Assembly (NCBI GenBank): GCA_000092065.1
Contig: CP000584.1
Origin: Ostreococcus lucimarinus
Lineage: Eukaryota
Length of the DNA: 64,000 nucleotides
Direction: 5' to 3' (one strand)
Part shown: one piece after another, positions 10,843 to 57,229 of the stretch
How the letters are laid out: every line of letters begins with the position of its first letter
Position numbering within the stretch: the stretch's first letter is position 1
The notes under the pieces: generated by a model
What the model saw: only the letters and a program-made list of their open reading frames with translations
Told to the model about the DNA's origin: nothing
Database searches by the model: none
Position numbers and translations under genes: made by a program

Positions 10843-11128
10843 CGCCTCACTCTAGCCTTGTAGTCTGCGCGCGCGACTCGCGTTCGTCCTCGCCGCGCGA
10901 CGCCGACGCCCCCGAACCGCGCGCGTCGCGTCCCTCGCCCCGCGGCGCGCGTTACACGTCGACGCGTCGACGCGCGGCGCGCCCGCGGGACGATGAAACG
11001 ACGATCGAGCGAAGACGCGGCCGACGCGGACGCGAGCGAGACGCCGAGCGCGGGCAAACGCGCGCGCGCGACGACGGCGACGATCGCCGAGAATCCGACG
11101 GGCGACGACGACGTGCGTGGAGACGCGC

Positions 11129-11138
<10 letters not shown>

Positions 11139-11165
<27 letters not shown>

Positions 11166-11168
11166 ACG
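11139..11168. repeat. (GACGCG)n hexanucleotide repeat inside a GC-rich low-complexity spacer (10843..11546)
   Basis: gacgcgacgcgacgcgacgcgacgcgacg seen directly. The surrounding 700 bp give Arg-rich ORFs in all frames. Confidence 0.7.
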
Positions 11169-11546
11169 GCGCGATGGCCGCCGAACCGCGACGCGCGCGC
11201 GGGACGAACGCGCGACGACGACGACGGTCGGGAACGCGTCGCGTCGGATCGCGCGCGAGCGAAGGCGCGAACGGCGCGTTTAAAGAAGAGACGCGCGCGA
11301 CGGATTCGACGCGCGCGCGGAACGCGGTGACTGACGACGCGCGCGAATGTGAACGTTGATGCATAGAAATCGAACGCGAAGTCGAACCGCAGGAGCTCGC
11401 GGACGTCGAACGCCGAGCCGGAGGCGGCGGCGGAGAAGGCGAACGGGAAACCCGCCGGCAAGGCGAAGACGAAGGCGAACGGAAACGGGAAGGGCGCGAC
11501 GAAAGGAGGTGCGCGCGTCGACGATCGCGCGATTCGCGCGTTTTGA

Positions 11547-12509
11547 GTGATGATGCGTGACGGGGGACTGACGATAGGACGGTGTTTCGACGCGATCGTA
11601 GACGACGTGACGAGCGTTGACTATCGCGAGGGCGAGTCGCTCGCGGCGCACTTGAAGCTCGACGAGGGCGTGCTCGATGTGTGCATTCCCGCCGAGGCTA
11701 CGTCGACCGCGAATCAGCACTTGCGCACGAGGCAGTTGTGGGGCACGGATGTTTACACGGCGGATTCCGATATCGTCGCCGTGCTCACGCACACTGGATA
11801 TTATCGTCCGAGCGGCGTCATGCCGCCGAATCTCGGCGCGGTGCGCGCCGTCATTCGAGCGACGCCGCACCCGGAAGATGGCTATCCCTCGACGAGTCGT
11901 AACGGTATTCGATCGCGATCGTGGGGACACATCAAAGAAGGGTGCGGATTTGTCGTCGAGAGCGCGCGGGCGGTGACGAGCTCTGGCGTCGAAATCGACT
12001 TGACGCCGAACACGATGCGTCGCAAGGTTTCGCCAACGTTTTTCCCGATTGAGAAGGAGCACGTCGTGCACACGCGTAATTCTGCGGCTAACGCCACGGG
12101 TAAGAAGGGTTTGATTCGTGAAGTGACGATTCAGTACAATTTATGCAACGAACCGTGGATGAAGTACAGCGTCAGCCTCGTCGCAGATCAAGGCTTCAAG
12201 AGATCGCAGTGGACGTGCGCGCGACTTCGCCGGGAAGTCTTGTACGTCGAGACGCATCACAAGAGGTACGAGTTGAGCTGCGTGCCTGGAAAGGATGGTG
12301 AAGAGAGTAGATTCAGATGGGCCGCGAGTAAGAAGCCGCTCCCGCTTGATAAGACGCGCGAAGTGGGAGTGCCGTTGCCGAAGGCGCACGTCGACGTCGC
12401 CGCCGACGATTTGCGCTGGGACGAGATTCATTGGGGATCGAACTCGGTGATCATTCGCGACAAGGAGTACCAGCTCGCGCGCTTACAATACCTTCCGCGC
12501 GGTAAGTGA
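11547..12509 (+). CDS. Conserved eukaryotic hypothetical protein (possibly Rxt3-like), 320 aa
   Basis: Non-repetitive globular sequence. The block RTRQLWGTDVYTADSDIVAVLTHTGYYRPSG resembles, from memory, the conserved core of Rxt3-type histone-deacetylase-complex subunits. Unverified. Confidence 0.45.
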   Translation: MMMRDGGLTIGRCFDAIVDDVTSVDYREGESLAAHLKLDEGVLDVCIPAEATSTANQHLRTRQLWGTDVYTADSDIVAVLTHTGYYRPSGVMPPNLGAVRAVIRATPHPEDGYPSTSRNGIRSRSWGHIKEGCGFVVESARAVTSSGVEIDLTPNTMRRKVSPTFFPIEKEHVVHTRNSAANATGKKGLIREVTIQYNLCNEPWMKYSVSLVADQGFKRSQWTCARLRREVLYVETHHKRYELSCVPGKDGEESRFRWAASKKPLPLDKTREVGVPLPKAHVDVAADDLRWDEIHWGSNSVIIRDKEYQLARLQYLPRGK

Positions 12510-13875: not shown

Positions 13876-14086
13876 GTGCGCGCGCGCGACGGCGAGGCGA
13901 GGCGAGGCGCGCGCGCGCGGAATTCGCGTCGCGAAAACCGTTCGCGTCGCGCGCGGTGATAAGCGCGGTTCGACGCGCGCGCGGGACGCGCGGGACGCGC
14001 GGATGGCGATGGCGATGGCGATCGAGGGGATGGATGATCGTCGAGCGAATCGACGCGCGAGACTGACGATGTTGACGGTTCGATAG

Positions 14087-14209: not shown

Positions 14210-14317
14210 GTGCGCGCGTCGACGCGCTCGAAGCGCGCGCGGACGAACGCGTGGAGTGAATGAATGAGTTCGTTGAGACTGACGACGAAATCGATCGCGC
14301 GATGATATGATGCACAG

Positions 14318-15991: not shown

Positions 15992-16142
15992 GTGCGTGAT
16001 CGCGCGCGCGCGTTTCGCGATCACTCGTCGCGCTCGACCGCGCGCGCGTCGCGCGCGACCGCGACGGATCGACATTTGATTTTGAATGCGCTCGACGCGA
16101 GACTGACGCACCGCGCGCGCGAACGCGCGACTCGAACGACAG

Positions 16143-25100: not shown

Positions 25101-26524
25101 TTGCCGCGCGCGCCGAAGCAAAGCGCATCGTCGAAGCGCGAATGAAAATAATTCACAGCGCTGCAACGAAGATTCAAGCTGCGTTTCGAAAATGTATGAT
25201 GCGCAAGCACTTCCTTCGCTTGCGTTGGTTCGTGATTTTATCGCAAGCGCGCGCTCGCGCCGCCGCCGCGCGCCGGACCTTTGTGGCGCAAAAGAAGGCT
25301 AGCGTGACAATCCAACGGCGTGTTCGACGATTTTTGGACTACAATGCGTACAAACGTCGTTCGCAAATGATAGAAAACGAGCGTCAGAAGAAAGCTGCGA
25401 CGACGATTCAACGTCACTGGCGTGGATACAACACGCGCGACGGACTCGACAACATTCAATGGAAGACGTACTTCGTCACGTTGCTGCAAGCATACGTGCG
25501 ACGTTGGCAAACTCGTCGCAAGTTCGTGAACGAAATTTTACCGCGTCAAAAAGAGCTCAAGTTGCAAGCGCGGAAGACGCAGATGCGTGCGCGAATGGCT
25601 CGTGAGCGCGAGGCGGCGACATGCATTCAAAAGTTCTGCCGCGGTCACCTCGCTAGAAAAACAGTGAGAAAGATGCGGCGCAAGGCGTCCAAGGCGAAAC
25701 GAGCCGAGAAGGATGCCGCCGCGAATCTACTTCAAAAGGAAGAGAAATCTAGCGAGGAAATCACTCAGCGAAGTCGGCGTCCTGTGTCGGCGTTCACGAG
25801 AAAAGCTTTGCTCGAACAACACGTGGTGGTAATCCAAGCCTTCGTTCGCGGCTGGCTCGCGCGAAAGCACGCGGTGCATAAATTGGAGTGGCATCGCAAG
25901 AGAATCGCCGCCAAGGCGCAGCCTGTCAATCCTTTACACGCGCGCGCTGAACAAGCTGCGAATATGATCGCCGCACCGCACGCACGCGATGACTGCCTGC
26001 GTGGTTGCACGTTCTTCACCGAACACTGGAATCTGTCCAAGACGTGTCGAGGCATCGTCACCTCGCCTCGCGTGCTGCACGCGTTGATGCGCAACGTTCG
26101 ACAGTGCAGCCGCTCGGCGTCACAAGTACCTTTGTTGACCGCGGCGTACGATTTGTTCGAGATCATCGCACGCGATAAGCACTACGCGAGTGCGTTGGAA
26201 CAATGCCCCGACAGTGTGATGACCATGACGGAGCATCTGCAACAGTACCGCGACAGGCCGACGCTTTTGGAATCCGCGGTGAACACGATGGTGGCGTTGT
26301 TTGAAAACTCGTCCAACAAGCGGTCTTTGGTAAGCGAAAAGTTTTTGACGCGCGTCGAAAAAATGAGAGATATCATCGACAGCAATCGCATCGTGCACAG
26401 ACGTCGGGCGATGACTTTTGCGCAGCAAGGAAGATACAAGGAAGAAACCGAAGCGCGCGACGCGTTGGTCAAGACGGAGCAAACGCTCGCGTGCTTGAAA
26501 AAGTTGACTCGTACGTTGACGTAA
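22157..26524 (+). CDS. ASPM / abnormal-spindle-like protein (ASH domain, calponin-homology domains, long IQ-motif array, C-terminal helical region), 1455 aa
   Basis: N-terminal Ig-like block (TIQPGTTERVQLTWTPQ). CH domains (ELAFIAWLNHT..., DGRALCALIRAYAPMMI). More than 20 IQ-type repeats (IQRWWRW, IQSFKRMHTARLEF, IQGWYRTVCARNEY, IQAAFRKCMMRKHFLRLR...). A TGTAA lies 7 nt after the stop. Confidence 0.85.
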   Translation: MSGMATTERGDADALWRAISAVTAVGGARESDASETRATEARDGTAGGMGGKMKDARARGDAVDDARRPSARASGERRRAVLSEPDAVPVVRFGAVDVGGTGCEGLDIVNDTALTQEVAFADCEAIARDGFSLDRETLTIQPGTTERVQLTWTPQRAMAATYCGQISFVVVAEAPVPMPEVEMKARIRGVAKGEVLRPLTNEAPEERVASATKRPRDARLATRRSLATSPRKLAGEDKLALDAMRAKQRRLEDEPATLALAPVARALQLQREDSASGDAHEGSTSRNVSDEFQAGIWLRQQELAFIAWLNHTIVIDDVGTMGDDSPSANRGGNASAREVRQTVRNKLTSLYSYDDELGRVLKKTYRHVDNARFRLNTGQTFMDNVALKEEFARALSCFSPFWLQLGVDVVVGGGIVWKRRGDLHEIQKECIAALFRDRDLEIEFGTGHVPGAPPFAHGYEEALSRSVLKRVLLLVFILDRAAMSGLPPNTPLLMRPHAALKRSEDILRTALQGSMYGEGDVIRNLSQCSYKLHYKQNPIREYDFQCTNLAVDLRDGVRLCRLMEVLNADVLFMSYDEKNKEWKRSLLSEVHFPCASRAHRVQNVEVALRAIKDQQVGLPGTWSRIKAEDIVDGHLEHTMGLLWALMMHYSAPGLLLPKSLDSEITRLGGKVPDIKRIERLSAARRGDSVIEAPQCAMEARLYAWARAACATQNVELNNLGGAFTDGRALCALIRAYAPMMIPKRRIGNAPLKLDDANADTAKHARELARDNFAAVAKALQALGGVPNPTFDIRFTSDEGLDSPDPRAVSGYLLFLSARLLLLRQQEVACVRIQRWWRWNRPNRPKFAEVVRKWNAASTVIASHVRRVQAVDAVNARKNAIVKLQSFRRACVARREFLNMKNAAVKIQSFKRMHTARLEFQDTKWAVEKVQKMRRGCAQRNQFLRKKQAATLIQGWYRTVCARNEYVNKTCAATIIQMHWRAFAARAEAKRIVEARMKIIHSAATKIQAAFRKCMMRKHFLRLRWFVILSQARARAAAARRTFVAQKKASVTIQRRVRRFLDYNAYKRRSQMIENERQKKAATTIQRHWRGYNTRDGLDNIQWKTYFVTLLQAYVRRWQTRRKFVNEILPRQKELKLQARKTQMRARMAREREAATCIQKFCRGHLARKTVRKMRRKASKAKRAEKDAAANLLQKEEKSSEEITQRSRRPVSAFTRKALLEQHVVVIQAFVRGWLARKHAVHKLEWHRKRIAAKAQPVNPLHARAEQAANMIAAPHARDDCLRGCTFFTEHWNLSKTCRGIVTSPRVLHALMRNVRQCSRSASQVPLLTAAYDLFEIIARDKHYASALEQCPDSVMTMTEHLQQYRDRPTLLESAVNTMVALFENSSNKRSLVSEKFLTRVEKMRDIIDSNRIVHRRRAMTFAQQGRYKEETEARDALVKTEQTLACLKKLTRTLT

Positions 26525-26530
26525 TAAAGT

Positions 26531-26535
26531 TGTAA
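26531..26535 (+). promoter_or_regulatory. TGTAA candidate poly(A) signal immediately downstream of the ASPM-like stop
   Basis: taaagtTGTAAaatc. Confidence 0.4.
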
Positions 26536-26575
26536 AATCACATCTCGACTACTACAAGCTCTTCTTTCGATGGCA

Positions 26576-27493
26576 TCACCCTCTGATGCGCATGGTGAAC
26601 GGAATGCGCAGATACACGCGAACGAAATCTAACAAACACAGCACCGCCATGCCGCTCCCCATCGCTTCCCAAAACACTTGCGACATCGGCATCGCCTTCG
26701 TCTCGTCCACGCGCAGGAACATTGGGAACGACACCAAGAAGTAAATTCCATAAAATGCCGATCCGAGCGTGTACGCCATGTGCCGATCGGCGAAGGAGTA
26801 ATACGGGAATCCGCAAATGGTTAAACTCTCCATGAACGCCGTCGAGTACGCCATCGCGCCCACCGCCGCGCACTCGAATCCGAAACGCCAAGCGTCGTTC
26901 ACGTACCCCGTTCGAATCCGTCGCAACGCCGCGTTCGACAACACGTGGTAAAACATGAAATACGCGTGCGTCATGAGATACATCGAGATCGGCACGTCGT
27001 TCAAGCGGTGCGCGTCGAACGTGTACTCCGCCTTGAGCACCGCGTAAAAGTAGTGCGTGTACCAGTAATTTCCGATAAAGCTGAACACCGCGATCCACAC
27101 GTTCGCCTTCACGATGTAACGCTCGCTCAGCGCTTTCCCTCGATCGCTCGCGCTCGGGCGCATCAGCGGCGCGACGATCGCCGGCGCCGCGCACGCGCCG
27201 CAATACGCCAGGTACCCCCCACGCCCGAACGACTCGTACGCCCGCGTCGCGATCACCACCCCCACGCTCGCGATCCAGCACGCCGAGTACTTCAGGCAAA
27301 ACATCTCCCCCTCCGCCTTGCTCGCGCGCGTCTTCGCGCACGCGAACCACCGCGCGCCGCTCGTCGCCGCCGTCGTCGTCGTCCGCCGCCTCGTCGTCTT
27401 CACCGGCGTCAGCGTCGCGTACGACGCCAGGATCGTCGCCAGGATCGCGGTGAATATCACCGCCATGTCCGTCCACACGTCCCCGGTCGTCAT
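26576..27493 (-). CDS. CPI1: Cycloeucalenol cycloisomerase (sterol biosynthesis, CPI1-type)
   Basis: RYIVKANVWIAVFSFIGNYWYTHYFYAVLKAEYTF...THAYFMFYHVLSNAALRRIR...GFPYYSF...AFYGIYFLVSFPMFLRVDE is near-collinear with plant CPI1. The ORF-track start (27637) would overlap the neighbouring acidic-protein gene, so the start is more likely M49 (27493) or M58 (27466). Confidence 0.85.
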   Translation of the reverse strand: MTTGDVWTDMAVIFTAILATILASYATLTPVKTTRRRTTTTAATSGARWFACAKTRASKAEGEMFCLKYSACWIASVGVVIATRAYESFGRGGYLAYCGACAAPAIVAPLMRPSASDRGKALSERYIVKANVWIAVFSFIGNYWYTHYFYAVLKAEYTFDAHRLNDVPISMYLMTHAYFMFYHVLSNAALRRIRTGYVNDAWRFGFECAAVGAMAYSTAFMESLTICGFPYYSFADRHMAYTLGSAFYGIYFLVSFPMFLRVDETKAMPMSQVFWEAMGSGMAVLCLLDFVRVYLRIPFTMRIRG

Positions 27494-27569
27494 CGCGCGC
27501 GTCGTCGCGATCGCGCGTCGCTCTGGCGTCTCGGCGTCGTCACTCTGGCGCGTCTCGATCGTCGACGCG

Positions 27570-27674
27570 ATGAGCGGCAAGGCGCTCGCGAGCGACAGCG
27601 AAGACGACGACGTCGCCGTCCCGGCGAAGCGCGTCAACGACGTCGACGCCGCCGACGCGCCGCCGGCGAAGAAG
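27570..27674 (+). CDS. Exon 1 of a small acidic protein gene absent from the ORF track (MSGKALASDSEDDDVAVPAKRVNDVDAADAPPAKK)
   Basis: ATG 27570. Donor AAG|GTGCGCC at 27675. 61-nt intron ending ctttttaaatCAG| at 27735. Confidence 0.45.
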
Positions 27675-27735
27675 GTGCGCCGCGCGCGACGCCGCGACGC
27701 GCGAACGACGGACCGACTGACGCTTTTTAAATCAG

Positions 27736-27990
27736 ACGGCGACGAAACCGACGACGAGCGACGCGCGCGAGGGCAAGAAGCCCGCGCGCGAGGACGACGA
27801 CGACGACGACGATAGCGACGCGGATTCGGTCGACAGCGAGTGCGTGGACGATCTGTCGGGGGACGAGGTGGACGCGTCGAACATCATAGAGGGCGGTCGA
27901 CGCGCCAGGCGCGGACGACCGACGACGTTCACGGCGGAGATGTACGCCAAGGCGGGGCCGGCGTTCGGCAGCGATTCGGACGATGAGTGA
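27736..27990 (+). CDS. Exon 2 of the small acidic protein (…KKPAREDDDDDDDSDADSVDSECVDDLSGDEVDASNIIEGGRRARRGRPTTFTAEMYAKAGPAFGSDSDDE*)
   Basis: In phase with exon 1 after removing 27675..27735. Spliced product is about 119 aa. Composition is histone-chaperone or nucleolar-like. Confidence 0.45.
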   Translation, partial: TATKPTTSDAREGKKPAREDDDDDDDSDADSVDSECVDDLSGDEVDASNIIEGGRRARRGRPTTFTAEMYAKAGPAFGSDSDDE

Positions 27991-28055
27991 GCGCGCGCGA
28001 GGTGAAACGCTAGCGATGTGATCGAACGAACGAACGAAACGGTAAACGACACACC

Positions 28056-28454
28056 ATGGCGCGCGGAGACGGCGCCGCCGCGGCGCTGTTTCGCCGCATC
28101 ATCCGCGCCGCGCGCGCGCTCGATCGCGTCGAGGCGAGGGACGCCGTCGTCGAAGCGCGCGCGGCGTTTCGAGCGCGCGCCGACGTCAGCGGCGCCGCGC
28201 TCGAGGACGCGCTCGAACGGGGCGAGCAAAGACTAGCGCTGGCTTCACATTATGGCATCGCGTACGAACGCATAGCGCACGCGAAACTCGCGGGAGGCGG
28301 GAATAAAGACGTCGAGGTGCCGTCGACGAAGGCGTTTAACACCGCCGTCGCGCGAGCGCAGTTCCCGGTGAACCCGGCGAACGCGGCGGCGCGGGCGAAG
28401 GCGCGGGCGAGACGAGGGGCGGTGGCGAACGCCGAGCGACGGACGAACGAATGA
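28056..28454 (+). CDS. LYR-motif (Complex1_LYR family) protein, 132 aa
   Basis: MARGDGAAAALFRRIIRAARALDRVEARDAVVEARAAFRA shows the L-x-x-(F/Y)-R..IR...R LYR pattern at the N-terminus of a small basic helical protein. Start codon in caccATGg context. Confidence 0.55.
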   Translation: MARGDGAAAALFRRIIRAARALDRVEARDAVVEARAAFRARADVSGAALEDALERGEQRLALASHYGIAYERIAHAKLAGGGNKDVEVPSTKAFNTAVARAQFPVNPANAAARAKARARRGAVANAERRTNE

Positions 28455-28509
28455 ATCGAGCGTGGGAATCTATCTATGCCTATGATCTAGCCCTAGCAAC
28501 CTAGCTGTT

Positions 28510-29712
28510 TTACTGCGATGACCATAGCGATCGCGTGCCGTAGTTTTTCGTCTCTCGGTACGCGGGCGCGGTGTAGAGAAATTGCAACACCGGTCGATTG
28601 GCGAGCGAGTCGTTCGCCATGCCGCGGTGGAGTAAGCGGTAGTCGTACGCCACGCTTTGACCCGCGTCGAGAATTCCATCGAAGGAGAGTCGTAAGATCA
28701 AGCTCGCGTCGCCAAAACCGATGAGTTTACTCGTCTTGTGACTGCGCATGAAGAACTGCGTAAAACCGGTTTCGCGCGATAAATCGATCAACGGCATGAA
28801 GACGCAGACGCCGTACGGCGGTGCGTGACCGCATCCCGTGCGGACGTCGCACTCGACGTCGAGATGTCGACCGTCTGCGTGCCACTCTTGATTTTTCGCG
28901 CCGGGTCTGGAATACACCACCGACACGTGCACGTTCCAACCGTTCGGCATGAGCGCGTCGACGAGCGCGCGCCACGGCGCGTCGTCGCGCGCGAGCGCGC
29001 GAAGCGTCGCCCACTCCTCGAGTTCTAAATCTACTAGAGCATCGAATCGCTCGCCTCCACGCGAACCAATCTCTCGAAACGCGAATCGATCGCGCCCGTA
29101 CACTATATCCCCGAACGATTCCTCGAACCTCCGCTCGACGCGTTCCACGAATCGCTCCGTCGCCTCGCGAATTTCCCGCGTCGTCTCTTCGTCCACCGCT
29201 TTCAAGCACGTCGCCACGCCCGCGTCTGCGAACGCCGCCACGCGCTCTTCATCCGTCCTGTCCTTCCGTCCCCAATCGAGCGTCTCTTTCGTCACCGCAT
29301 CGATCGATCCCAGCGGCACGTATCCCGGCGCCGTCATCGTCGTCGTCGCCTCGGCGTCCCAACCGCGCGTCGCCATCCACGCCCGCACCCGCCGTTCCAG
29401 CCGCGCGTCCTCGCTCGAGCACGCGCGACACCGCCACGCGATCGTGACGTCCATCGCGCGCGCGTCGTCGTCGTCGTCGGCGCTCGCGCGCGCGCGCTCG
29501 AGCTCGACGACGCGCGCGTCGCGTTTCGCCGTCCATCGCAGCGCGGCGAGGTGCGCGGCGAGCGCGTCGTCGTCGCGCGCGCGCGTCGTCACGCGCAGGA
29601 CGTGCGTGGAGAGCGCGCGATCGTCGTCGTACAGCGCCTCGTCGCTCGCCTCGTCGTCGTCGTCGTCGTCAGTCATGACGATGACTCGAGACGCGACGCC
29701 GAGTGGCGGCAC
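28510..29712 (-). CDS. Phytanoyl-CoA dioxygenase (PhyH)-like Fe(II)/2-oxoglutarate oxygenase
   Basis: Jelly-roll region with HxD (NQEWHADG) and distal His (YDYRLLHRG). Acidic N-terminal tail (MTDDDDDDEASDE). Confidence 0.6.
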   Translation of the reverse strand: MPPLGVASRVIVMTDDDDDDEASDEALYDDDRALSTHVLRVTTRARDDDALAAHLAALRWTAKRDARVVELERARASADDDDDARAMDVTIAWRCRACSSEDARLERRVRAWMATRGWDAEATTTMTAPGYVPLGSIDAVTKETLDWGRKDRTDEERVAAFADAGVATCLKAVDEETTREIREATERFVERVERRFEESFGDIVYGRDRFAFREIGSRGGERFDALVDLELEEWATLRALARDDAPWRALVDALMPNGWNVHVSVVYSRPGAKNQEWHADGRHLDVECDVRTGCGHAPPYGVCVFMPLIDLSRETGFTQFFMRSHKTSKLIGFGDASLILRLSFDGILDAGQSVAYDYRLLHRGMANDSLANRPVLQFLYTAPAYRETKNYGTRSLWSSQ

Positions 29713-29737
29713 TGCGCGCCGCGCGCACGGAAGGAAC

Positions 29738-29780
29738 GATGAGCGATCAGGCGGTGTTGCTGCTCCGGAAGCAGCTCAAA
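29738..29780 (+). CDS. UBC7: UBC7/UBE2G-type E2 exon 1 (MSDQAVLLLRKQLK + 1 nt)
   Basis: ATG 29738. Donor AAAG|GTGCGAC at 29781. Without splicing, the N-terminus runs into an Arg-rich non-homologous stretch. Confidence 0.7.
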
Positions 29781-29948
29781 GGTGCGACGCGCGCGACGCG
29801 ACGCGCGCGACGCGGATTCGGGCGCGACGCGCGACGCGACGACGGCGCGAGCGATGGGATTTCGACCGATCGCTGGCGGCGGTGTCGCGCGTCTGTTTCG
29901 GCGCGCACGCGCGGGAGACTGACGCGAACGCGTCGCGAACGCGAGCAG

Positions 29949-30403
29949 AGCTTTCGAGAAACCCGATCGAGGGGTTCTCCGCGGGTTTGGTGGATGATTG
30001 CAACGTGTTCGAGTGGCAAGTCACGGTCATGGGACCGCCCGAGACGCTGTACGAGGGCGGGTTCTTTACGTGTAACATGTCGTTTCCGAAAGATTATCCG
30101 AATAAGCCGCCGACGGTGAAGTTCGTGAGCGAGATGTGGCATCCGAACGTGTACGCCGATGGACGGGTGTGCATATCGATCTTACACTCGCCTGGGAATG
30201 ATCCCAACGGGTACGAGGACGCGAGCGAGCGATGGAGTCCGGTGCAGACGGTGGAGACGATTATGTTGAGCGTGATTTCTATGCTTTCCGATCCGAACGA
30301 TGAGAGCCCGGCGAACGTAGACGCGGCCAAGGAGTGGCGTGATGATTATCCGGCGTTCAAGAAGCGTGTGGCGCGATGTGTGCGAAGGAGTCAAGAGGAG
30401 TAA
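29949..30403 (+). CDS. UBC7: UBC7/UBE2G-type ubiquitin-conjugating enzyme exon 2
   Basis: Acceptor gagCAG| at 29946-48. ELSRNPIEGFSAGLVDDCNVFEWQVTVMGPPETLYEGGFF...HPNVYADGRVCISILHSPGNDPNGYEDASERWSPVQTVE...NVDAAKEWR has the HPN active site plus the acidic loop insertion of UBC7/UBE2G. Spliced product is 166 aa. Confidence 0.85.
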
Positions 30404-57040: not shown

Positions 57041-57229
57041 GTGCGCGGCGCGGCGCGGCGCAGCGCGCGACGCGCGACGCGCGAACGCGAGACGCGAGAC
57101 GCGACGATCGAACGGCGAGGTCAAAAGCGTCGCGCGACGGGACGGCGACGGCGCGGCGACGACGCGCGAGGCGAGGGGCGAAGAAAAAACGACGAGCGAG
57201 GACTGACGAAAGGCGACTCGACGACGCAG

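Follow-up and report, generated by a model that had tools for sequence, protein, structure and literature searches.

Does the 64-kb stretch of Ostreococcus lucimarinus DNA analysed here (contig CP000584.1 of assembly GCA_000092065.1; hereafter the window) contain, at positions 27570-27990 of its plus strand, a small spliced gene that mechanical calling of open reading frames (ORFs) does not display, and what kind of protein would such a gene encode? The window has 59.6% G+C and the appearance of a compact eukaryotic genome. From the analysis that follows we consider it highly probable that the interval is a two-exon nuclear gene and that its acidic product of 119 amino acids (aa) is, by homology, a CHZ-type chaperone. 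An earlier note on this DNA had proposed the spliced structure, and its ATG at 27570, the 35 codons opened by that ATG, the donor, the intron of 61 nucleotides (nt), the acceptor and the in-phase TGA all proved exact when they were re-checked (Table 1). Exon 1 holds an acidic Ser/Asp/Glu patch and its last codons specify a Lys-Lys pair (AAGAAG^GTGCGC, where ^ marks the splice junction), while exon 2 encodes, in this order, TATKPTTSDAREGKKPAR, a run of Asp, SDADSVDSECVDD, the CHZ motif and the tail FTAEMYAKAGPAFGSDSDDE.

The reading frames of the interval fit together only across the proposed junction. The frame of exon 2 is offset by one base from that of exon 1 and is open from 27736 to the TGA. 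Without splicing, the frame opened by the ATG at 27570 is 81 codons long and closes at the TAG of 27813-27815. The frame of exon 2, for its part, has a TGA at 27718-27720, within the branch-site motif of the intron, and offers no ATG upstream of the conserved C-terminal part of the protein, so that this part could not be translated without an upstream exon. The ORF list represents the locus by a 165-aa TTG-start ORF at 27318-27815 (+), which corresponds to exon 1 plus read-through of the intron, and by a 48-aa fragment at 27844-27990 within exon 2. The gene is indeed invisible to the ORF track, as the earlier note had stated, but the cause is not the shortness that it invoked. It had argued that neither exon reaches 60 aa in one frame, whereas exon 2 alone comprises 84 codons in one frame and is absent from the list because that frame has no ATG, GTG or TTG ahead of the GTG at 27844. 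A scan of the region 26500-28600 against Rfam returned no match close to any gathering score.

Table 1. Features of the CHZ-type locus in the window (^ marks a splice junction)
Feature	Position	Strand	Details
Spacer between divergent start codons	27494..27569		76 nt; neighbour ATG at 27493-27491
Exon 1, coding part	27570..27674	+	ATG and 34 codons, MSGKALASDSEDDDVAVPAKRVNDVDAADAPPAKK
Spliceosomal intron, phase 0, 61 nt	27675..27735	+	5' end AAG^GTGCGCC; 3' end TAAATCAG^ACG
Branch-site motif GACTGACG	27715..27722	+	Branch A ~14-15 nt 5' of the acceptor AG
Exon 2, coding part	27736..27990	+	84 codons and TGA (27988-27990)
CHZ motif core LSGDEVDASNIIEGGRRARRGR	27853..27918	+	aa 75-96; Pfam match aa 79-94 (27865-27912)

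Comparison with DNA drawn from Logan, ENA, JGI and NCBI showed that a single gene model, with a phase-0 intron placed after the Lys-Lys codon pair, is common to eight Ostreococcus-type lineages. Exon 1 ranges from 90 to 117 nt across these lineages and the intron is 61, 62, 63, 64, 68, 90, 91, 107 or 132 nt long. The 11 N-terminal residues, MSGKALASDSE, are identical in all eight lineages, and in all of them exon 2 ends with the same motif and tail. The donor reads AAG^GTGCG with two exceptions: O. tauri has GTACGG, and a long-read contig prone to errors has GTGGCG. Every lineage examined but O. tauri possesses the branch site GACTGA[CT]G, and the acceptor is either CAG or TAG. Intron sequences cannot be aligned between lineages and several of them carry in-frame stops, while both exons are conserved; read-through of the intron results in a frameshift or a stop in most lineages. 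In a codon alignment of five lineages, differences at the first, second and third codon positions amounted to 234, 225 and 453, respectively. Over the first 13 aligned codons we counted 32 synonymous and no non-synonymous pairwise differences, including a switch between the serine codons AGC and TCG, and over the last 62 aligned columns 190 synonymous versus 67 non-synonymous differences. These results indicate that purifying selection acts on the exons in the proposed frame. In Bathycoccus-like homologs, which have no intron at the corresponding place, the Lys patch leads straight into the acidic run and then the CHZ motif, an order that mirrors the spliced product and that we count in favour of the splicing model.

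The orthologous gene is already annotated in O. tauri, where it encodes an 'unnamed product' of 108 aa (XP_003079010.1, CAL51890.1, OUS49650.1, Q01AA9_OSTTA) and occupies 418 nt of chromosome 4 in GCA_000214015.2. When that locus was modelled with splicing of a 91-nt intron, which occupies the same position, the annotated protein was reproduced exactly. The two genes agree in the N-terminus of their proteins (MSGKALASDSEDD in O. tauri), the CHZ motif, the C-terminal tail and the phase-0 intron after Lys-Lys. In contrast, the O. tauri intron is longer, starts with GTACGG and has no ACTGAC branch motif, and the middle of the protein has diverged; the annotated protein bears no functional name. 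Gene order is also shared, and comprises an ASH/CH/IQ gene, the minus-strand neighbour, the CHZ gene, a LYR gene, a PhyH-type dioxygenase, a ubiquitin-conjugating enzyme (UBC) and an alanyl-tRNA synthetase; the first three genes of this order are kept at a Bathycoccus-like locus. At that syntenic locus (contig L018, 2762-3279) no intron follows the Lys patch. A possible first exon of 7 nt (ATGGCTG^GTACGT...CCTGAC...AAACAG^ACAAGG) would lead to MADKGKEPIVDDDSEEEE..., which resembles the Ostreococcus N-terminus, and if this small exon is correct, the position of the intron may differ between the genera.

For the window species, a look-up of the exact 119-aa product in a collection of 15 billion proteins found it absent, and no NCBI-sourced protein was near-identical to it or clustered with it. 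The term 'unannotated' used in the earlier note is plausible on these indirect grounds, and the gene seems to be missing from the public protein sets of the species. On the reference contig of 931,813 bp, prokaryote-style or IMG-style calls gave only a 48-aa fragment and a 190-aa read-through in the wrong frame. All in all, the sequence comparisons support a real and ordinary two-exon gene that has fallen into a routine annotation gap.

The predicted protein is strongly acidic (isoelectric point 4.16; 33 Asp/Glu versus 16 Lys/Arg) and looks intrinsically disordered. It consists of the Ser/Asp/Glu patch at the N-terminus, a patch rich in Lys, located where the exons meet and resembling a nuclear localisation signal, the Asp run, the CHZ motif and an acidic tail. 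The description of the product as extremely acidic thus holds, but the basic block that had been placed at its very end is followed by 16 further residues, which terminate in GSDSDDE. The guess of a CHZ1-type protein was borne out by homology searches with the spliced peptide. Pfam returned a single family, the histone chaperone domain CHZ (PF09649), both for the window protein (E=1.6e-4, 21.5 bits) and for each of the ten orthologs that were scanned. Of ten orthologs or homologs, six scored at or above the gathering score of 23.3 bits (23.3-26.9 bits). An alignment of 13 homologs from prasinophytes and other green algae contained 20 invariant columns, and LSGDEVD.(S/G)NII.GGR..RRGR was invariant or nearly so throughout it; no other part of the protein is as well conserved as this motif. 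It occupies residues 75-96 of 119, near the C-terminus, with the Asp run and SDADSVDSE upstream and GSDSDDE downstream. When the profile of the 13 homologs was compared with solved structures, the only one matched was yeast Chz1 (2JSS chain B), from a nuclear magnetic resonance structure of its complex with H2A.Z-H2B.

Saccharomyces cerevisiae Chz1 (YER030W) is likewise a small, acidic and disordered member of PF09649, and its motif DL--AEIDTSNIITSGRRTR-GK aligns with dLsGDEvDasniieGGRraRRGR of the algal homologs; the similarity is limited to this motif. The determinants of the H2A.Z preference of Chz1, including its C-terminal DEF/Y motif, are reported to be poorly conserved outside yeast (PMC7658359). 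In the green lineage, CHZ-domain proteins are reported to be conserved even in unicellular algae, with the domain near the C-terminus and acidic flanks, and rice OsChz1 binds both H2A-H2B and H2A.Z-H2B through an acidic sequence adjoining the domain (PMC7658359). In human HIRIP3, a partner and substrate of CK2, the CHZ motif is essential to binding and deposition of H2A-H2B, and its deletion abolishes binding (PMC10854748). Both proteins resemble the window protein in having the CHZ domain near the C-terminus between acidic flanks. With 471 aa for OsChz1 and 556 aa for HIRIP3, however, they contain large extra regions, and the window protein is a minimal version of ~110-120 aa.

In the scheme that we favour, the 61-nt phase-0 intron would be spliced out and the resulting mRNA would encode the 119-residue acidic protein, which would act in the nucleus as a chaperone for free H2A-H2B and/or H2A.Z-H2B dimers, like Chz1, OsChz1 and HIRIP3. 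The protein would bind the dimers via the CHZ motif and the flanking acidic stretches, shield them and pass them on to be deposited into chromatin. Histone binding, a preference among H2A variants and nuclear localisation are predictions made from homology and composition, and the many S-x-x-D/E sites suggest that the protein may undergo CK2-type phosphorylation.

The signals of the intron are those of its genome. According to Irimia & Roy (2008, PMC2483917), introns of O. lucimarinus that lie off chromosome 2 and are confirmed by expressed sequence tags have an atypical 5' splice consensus, GTGCGTG, and carry the branch site ACTGAC in 87% of cases and the extended form GACTGACG in 66.5%; the branch-to-AG distance of non-chromosome-2 introns is ~20-35 nt and their 3' end is of the CGCAG type. 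The donor in the window, GTGCGCC, matches the consensus at five of seven positions, the distinctive GTGCG included, and the ortholog donors read GTGCGTC, GTGCGAC and GTGCGCC. The most diagnostic feature of the intron, missing from the earlier note, is its GACTGACG branch site, and the proposed CAG acceptor supplies the first AG downstream of this site. The intron finishes in ...GACTGACGCTTTTTAAATCAG, an ATCAG end and not one of the CGCAG type; the latter, like the distance of ~20-35 nt, is a preference of the class and not a requirement. The composite pattern AGGTGCG-N20-50-ACTGAC-N8-38-CAG occurred only once on the two strands of the 64 kb, at 27673-27735, against an expectation of 0.02 derived from dinucleotide-preserving shuffles, and the intron is therefore beyond chance; GACTGACG alone occurred 11 times in the window versus 4.2 expected. 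The UBC intron in the same window shows the same splice signals. An alternative acceptor, the AG at 27757-27758, was considered and rejected. It would define an 84-nt intron that keeps the frame of exon 1, meets the stop at 27813-27815 and never reaches the CHZ motif.

Evidence on removal of the intron came from a sister lineage. Its genomic contig L011 carries a 68-nt GT...CTGAC...CAG intron, and two independent Logan contigs, L012 (ERR1712159) and L013 (DRR699214), show an intron-less junction, GCGAAAAAG^GTGAAGACG; the protein that they encode has 118 aa. Aligned to each other, L012 and L011 stay collinear for 4,346 columns, in which no gap other than the 68-nt intron exceeds 6 nt. A near-identical 118-aa protein of the sister lineage is present in UniParc (UPI0003259CCF; P0068). 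This protein and that of L012 and L013 (P0077) share the two-exon architecture of the window gene and are ~68-76% identical to the window protein; the two contigs carry AAAAAG^GTGAAG, already joined, at the orthologous site. More than 12 genomic contigs of the sister lineage give a 79-aa ORF that begins at the first codon of exon 2. L012 is probably RNA-derived, because neighbouring ERR1712xxx runs (ERR1712006, ERR1712022, ERR1712028 and ERR1712117) are documented as Tara Oceans metatranscriptomes; a literature search for ERR1712159 found no mention of this run, only neighbouring accessions being documented. If L012 and L013 were genomic instead, they would represent a precise intron loss, which itself implies a spliced intermediate. 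The spliced model and the junction of the earlier note thus gain support both from the intron annotated at the orthologous site in O. tauri and from its precise absence in these two contigs.

Variation within the species of the window points in the same direction. Seven metagenome contigs with 98-99% identity to the window have invariant exons, and their indels are confined to the 3' end of the intron and to a short intergenic stretch after the stop codon. L005, a relative with 94% identity, was excluded from this comparison; L005 and L011 are contigs of the long-read type, with fragmented gene calls and indels of lengths other than multiples of three in conserved coding sequence, and L024 and L012 were used in their place. 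The T-rich 3' end of the intron reads TTTTTAAATCAG, TTTTAAATCCCAG or TTTTCAAATCCCAG, which results in introns of 61, 62 or 63 nt. The 62-nt allele (P0095) is found on the 931,813-bp NCBI reference contig and the 63-nt alleles, which are in frame and stop-free, on L001, L020, L022 and L023. Because these three length classes put exon 2 in three different frames, only splicing yields the same protein throughout, and we infer that the intron is also spliced in the window species itself.

Several observations weigh against the reading of the locus as a spliced gene for a CHZ-type chaperone, some of them on the side of the protein and others on the side of the intron. The Pfam scores of the window protein and of its O. 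tauri ortholog (21.8 bits) lie 1.5-1.8 bits under the gathering score, the profile match to Chz1 in the PDB is weak (E=0.2), and no similarity to Chz1, OsChz1 or HIRIP3 is detectable beyond the motif of ~25 residues. In addition, the CHZ domain of OsChz1 alone pulled down no histones (PMC7658359), so the motif alone is no proof of chaperone activity. These points would fit a gene that is spliced as proposed and whose protein is not a chaperone of H2A-H2B or H2A.Z-H2B, having for example a nucleolar or ribosome-biogenesis role or a generic one as CK2 partner or substrate. We regard this alternative as unlikely, since CHZ is the only family found in the window protein and in ten of ten orthologs, six of them over the cut-off, the motif with its 20 invariant columns is the most conserved region and has the layout of green-lineage CHZ proteins (PMC7658359), and loss of the motif ends H2A-H2B binding by HIRIP3 (PMC10854748).

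Regarding the intron, the branch-to-AG distance of 14-15 nt (or 16-17 nt for alleles with introns of 62 and 63 nt) is below the 20-35 nt typical of the species, and is the sole atypical feature among the signals. That L012 and L013 stem from RNA is deduced from an accession block. The look-up of the 119-aa protein and a search with the 28-nt spliced junction returned no spliced transcript or protein of the window species, the exact junction having no match in JGI metagenome contigs, and a protein-guided scan of JGI data yielded 14 related loci, with the intron present in eight of eight full-length matches. Finally, contig L010 (448-520; P0016) reads CAC at the acceptor instead of CAG. Its coverage is 0.68x and its 5' part is chimeric, and the variant was treated as unreliable; it is probably a sequencing error and possibly a real splice-site variant.

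If the intron were not removed, or were mostly retained, the window allele would give an 81-aa read-through product without the CHZ motif and the in-frame alleles a longer protein with an Arg-rich insert. Besides the short branch-to-AG distance and the negative searches for a spliced sequence of the window species, this explanation can draw on the 63-nt alleles and on a 90-nt intron (L009, L025), which are in frame and stop-free. We nonetheless find it very improbable. Read-through of the window allele would sacrifice the only strongly conserved part of the protein, and with intron lengths of 61, 62 and 63 nt within the species and 64-132 nt elsewhere, several introns containing stops, a common product results from splicing only. 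Moreover, the intron is unalignable between lineages whose exons are both conserved, and L012 and L013 lack the orthologous intron. As a separate observation, retention of an in-frame intron (63-nt alleles, or 90 nt in L009 and L025) would add an Arg-rich segment, VRRARRRDARTTDRLTLFKSQ or VRHRRRLRATRRRENVRSTDDFKRARGITQ.

The opposite strand had to be considered as well. A 353-aa minus-strand ORF at 26576-27637 starts at a TTG at 27637 and overlaps exon 1 by an extension that has no ATG. It contains the divergent neighbour, for which the earlier note used the label CPI1, a putative cycloeucalenol cycloisomerase, and a Pfam scan gave no match. Homologs of the neighbour share the start M..DVW.DMA.IF, which corresponds to the ATG at 27493 of the window. 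The spacer between the two start codons measures 76, 77, 60 or 66 nt in four lineages, with no conservation of sequence, and the antisense frame is not kept because these lengths differ by non-multiples of three. Translations of the antisense extension are unrelated between lineages, and a stop interrupts them in L027 as well as in the Bathycoccus-type locus. The third-position bias of exon 1 cannot separate the strands, because the wobble positions of the overlapping frames coincide, and we relied on spacer lengths, stops and the lack of antisense conservation in its stead. The shared start of the homologs, the unstable spacer and the unconserved antisense translation agree with the proposal that the N-terminal extension of the neighbour should be trimmed. 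That the plus strand holds no gene at all, and the interval is just this extension followed by non-coding DNA with chance open frames in a GC-rich sequence, would fit the minus-strand ORF passing through exon 1 and the uninformative third-position bias, but it is practically dismissed by the same failings of the extension, by the invariance of MSGKALASDSE on the plus strand despite the AGC-to-TCG serine codon switch and by the position of exon 2, which lies wholly outside the neighbour.

The 76-nt spacer presumably serves as a shared promoter and 5'-untranslated region. L012 (4395-4489) and L013, both probably RNA-derived, run across the two divergent genes, which suggests either head-to-head transcripts that overlap or a bidirectional promoter that is very compact. 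It is conceivable, though we would give it little credence, that three further points hold together at this locus. In such a case a minimal stand-alone CHZ chaperone would be combined with regulated retention of the in-frame introns (63 nt; 90 nt in L009 and L025), which would place the Arg-rich insert between the Lys patch and the acidic run, and with a bidirectional promoter of 60-77 nt shared with the neighbour labelled as a sterol-pathway gene, the two genes having overlapping head-to-head transcripts.

Other genes of the window were noted in passing. A LYR-motif protein of 132 aa (28056-28454, +) starts 65 nt after the stop codon of the CHZ gene. It scored 21.5 bits with Pfam Complex1_LYR, below the cut-off of 24.8, and is identical to a 'hypothetical protein' on the 931,813-bp NCBI contig. 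The UBC gene (UQ_con; 29739-30403, +) has its ATG at 29739, a first coding exon of 43 nt and an intron from 29782 to 29945 or 29948 (AAG^GTGCGAC ... GACTGACG ... CGCGAG/CAG). Because of this intron at 29782, the mechanical ORF of 484 aa at 28949-30403 is a composite of PhyH antisense sequence, intron and UBC exon 2. Other GTGCG...GACTGACG...AG stretches, all candidate introns, are located on the plus strand at 11113-11366, 11509-11601, 13876-14086, 14210-14317, 15992-16142 and 57041-57229, and a further candidate with the same signature lies on the minus strand at 56526-56338.

The main value of the finding concerns annotation, since a conserved chromatin gene is apparently absent from the protein set of this Ostreococcus, an omission that makes it easy to extend the divergent neighbour falsely at its N-terminus. 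The GTGCG...GACTGACG...AG signature could be used to recover further short-exon genes in compact genomes of the Ostreococcus type. The gene is a new member of its family in this genome, with an ortholog already annotated in O. tauri, and it leaves current knowledge unchallenged. With it, a minimal CHZ-motif protein joins the set of histone chaperones of the smallest free-living eukaryotes; if this protein is truly a minimal stand-alone chaperone, it could show which parts of the large CHZ proteins of plants and animals are needed for dimer binding.

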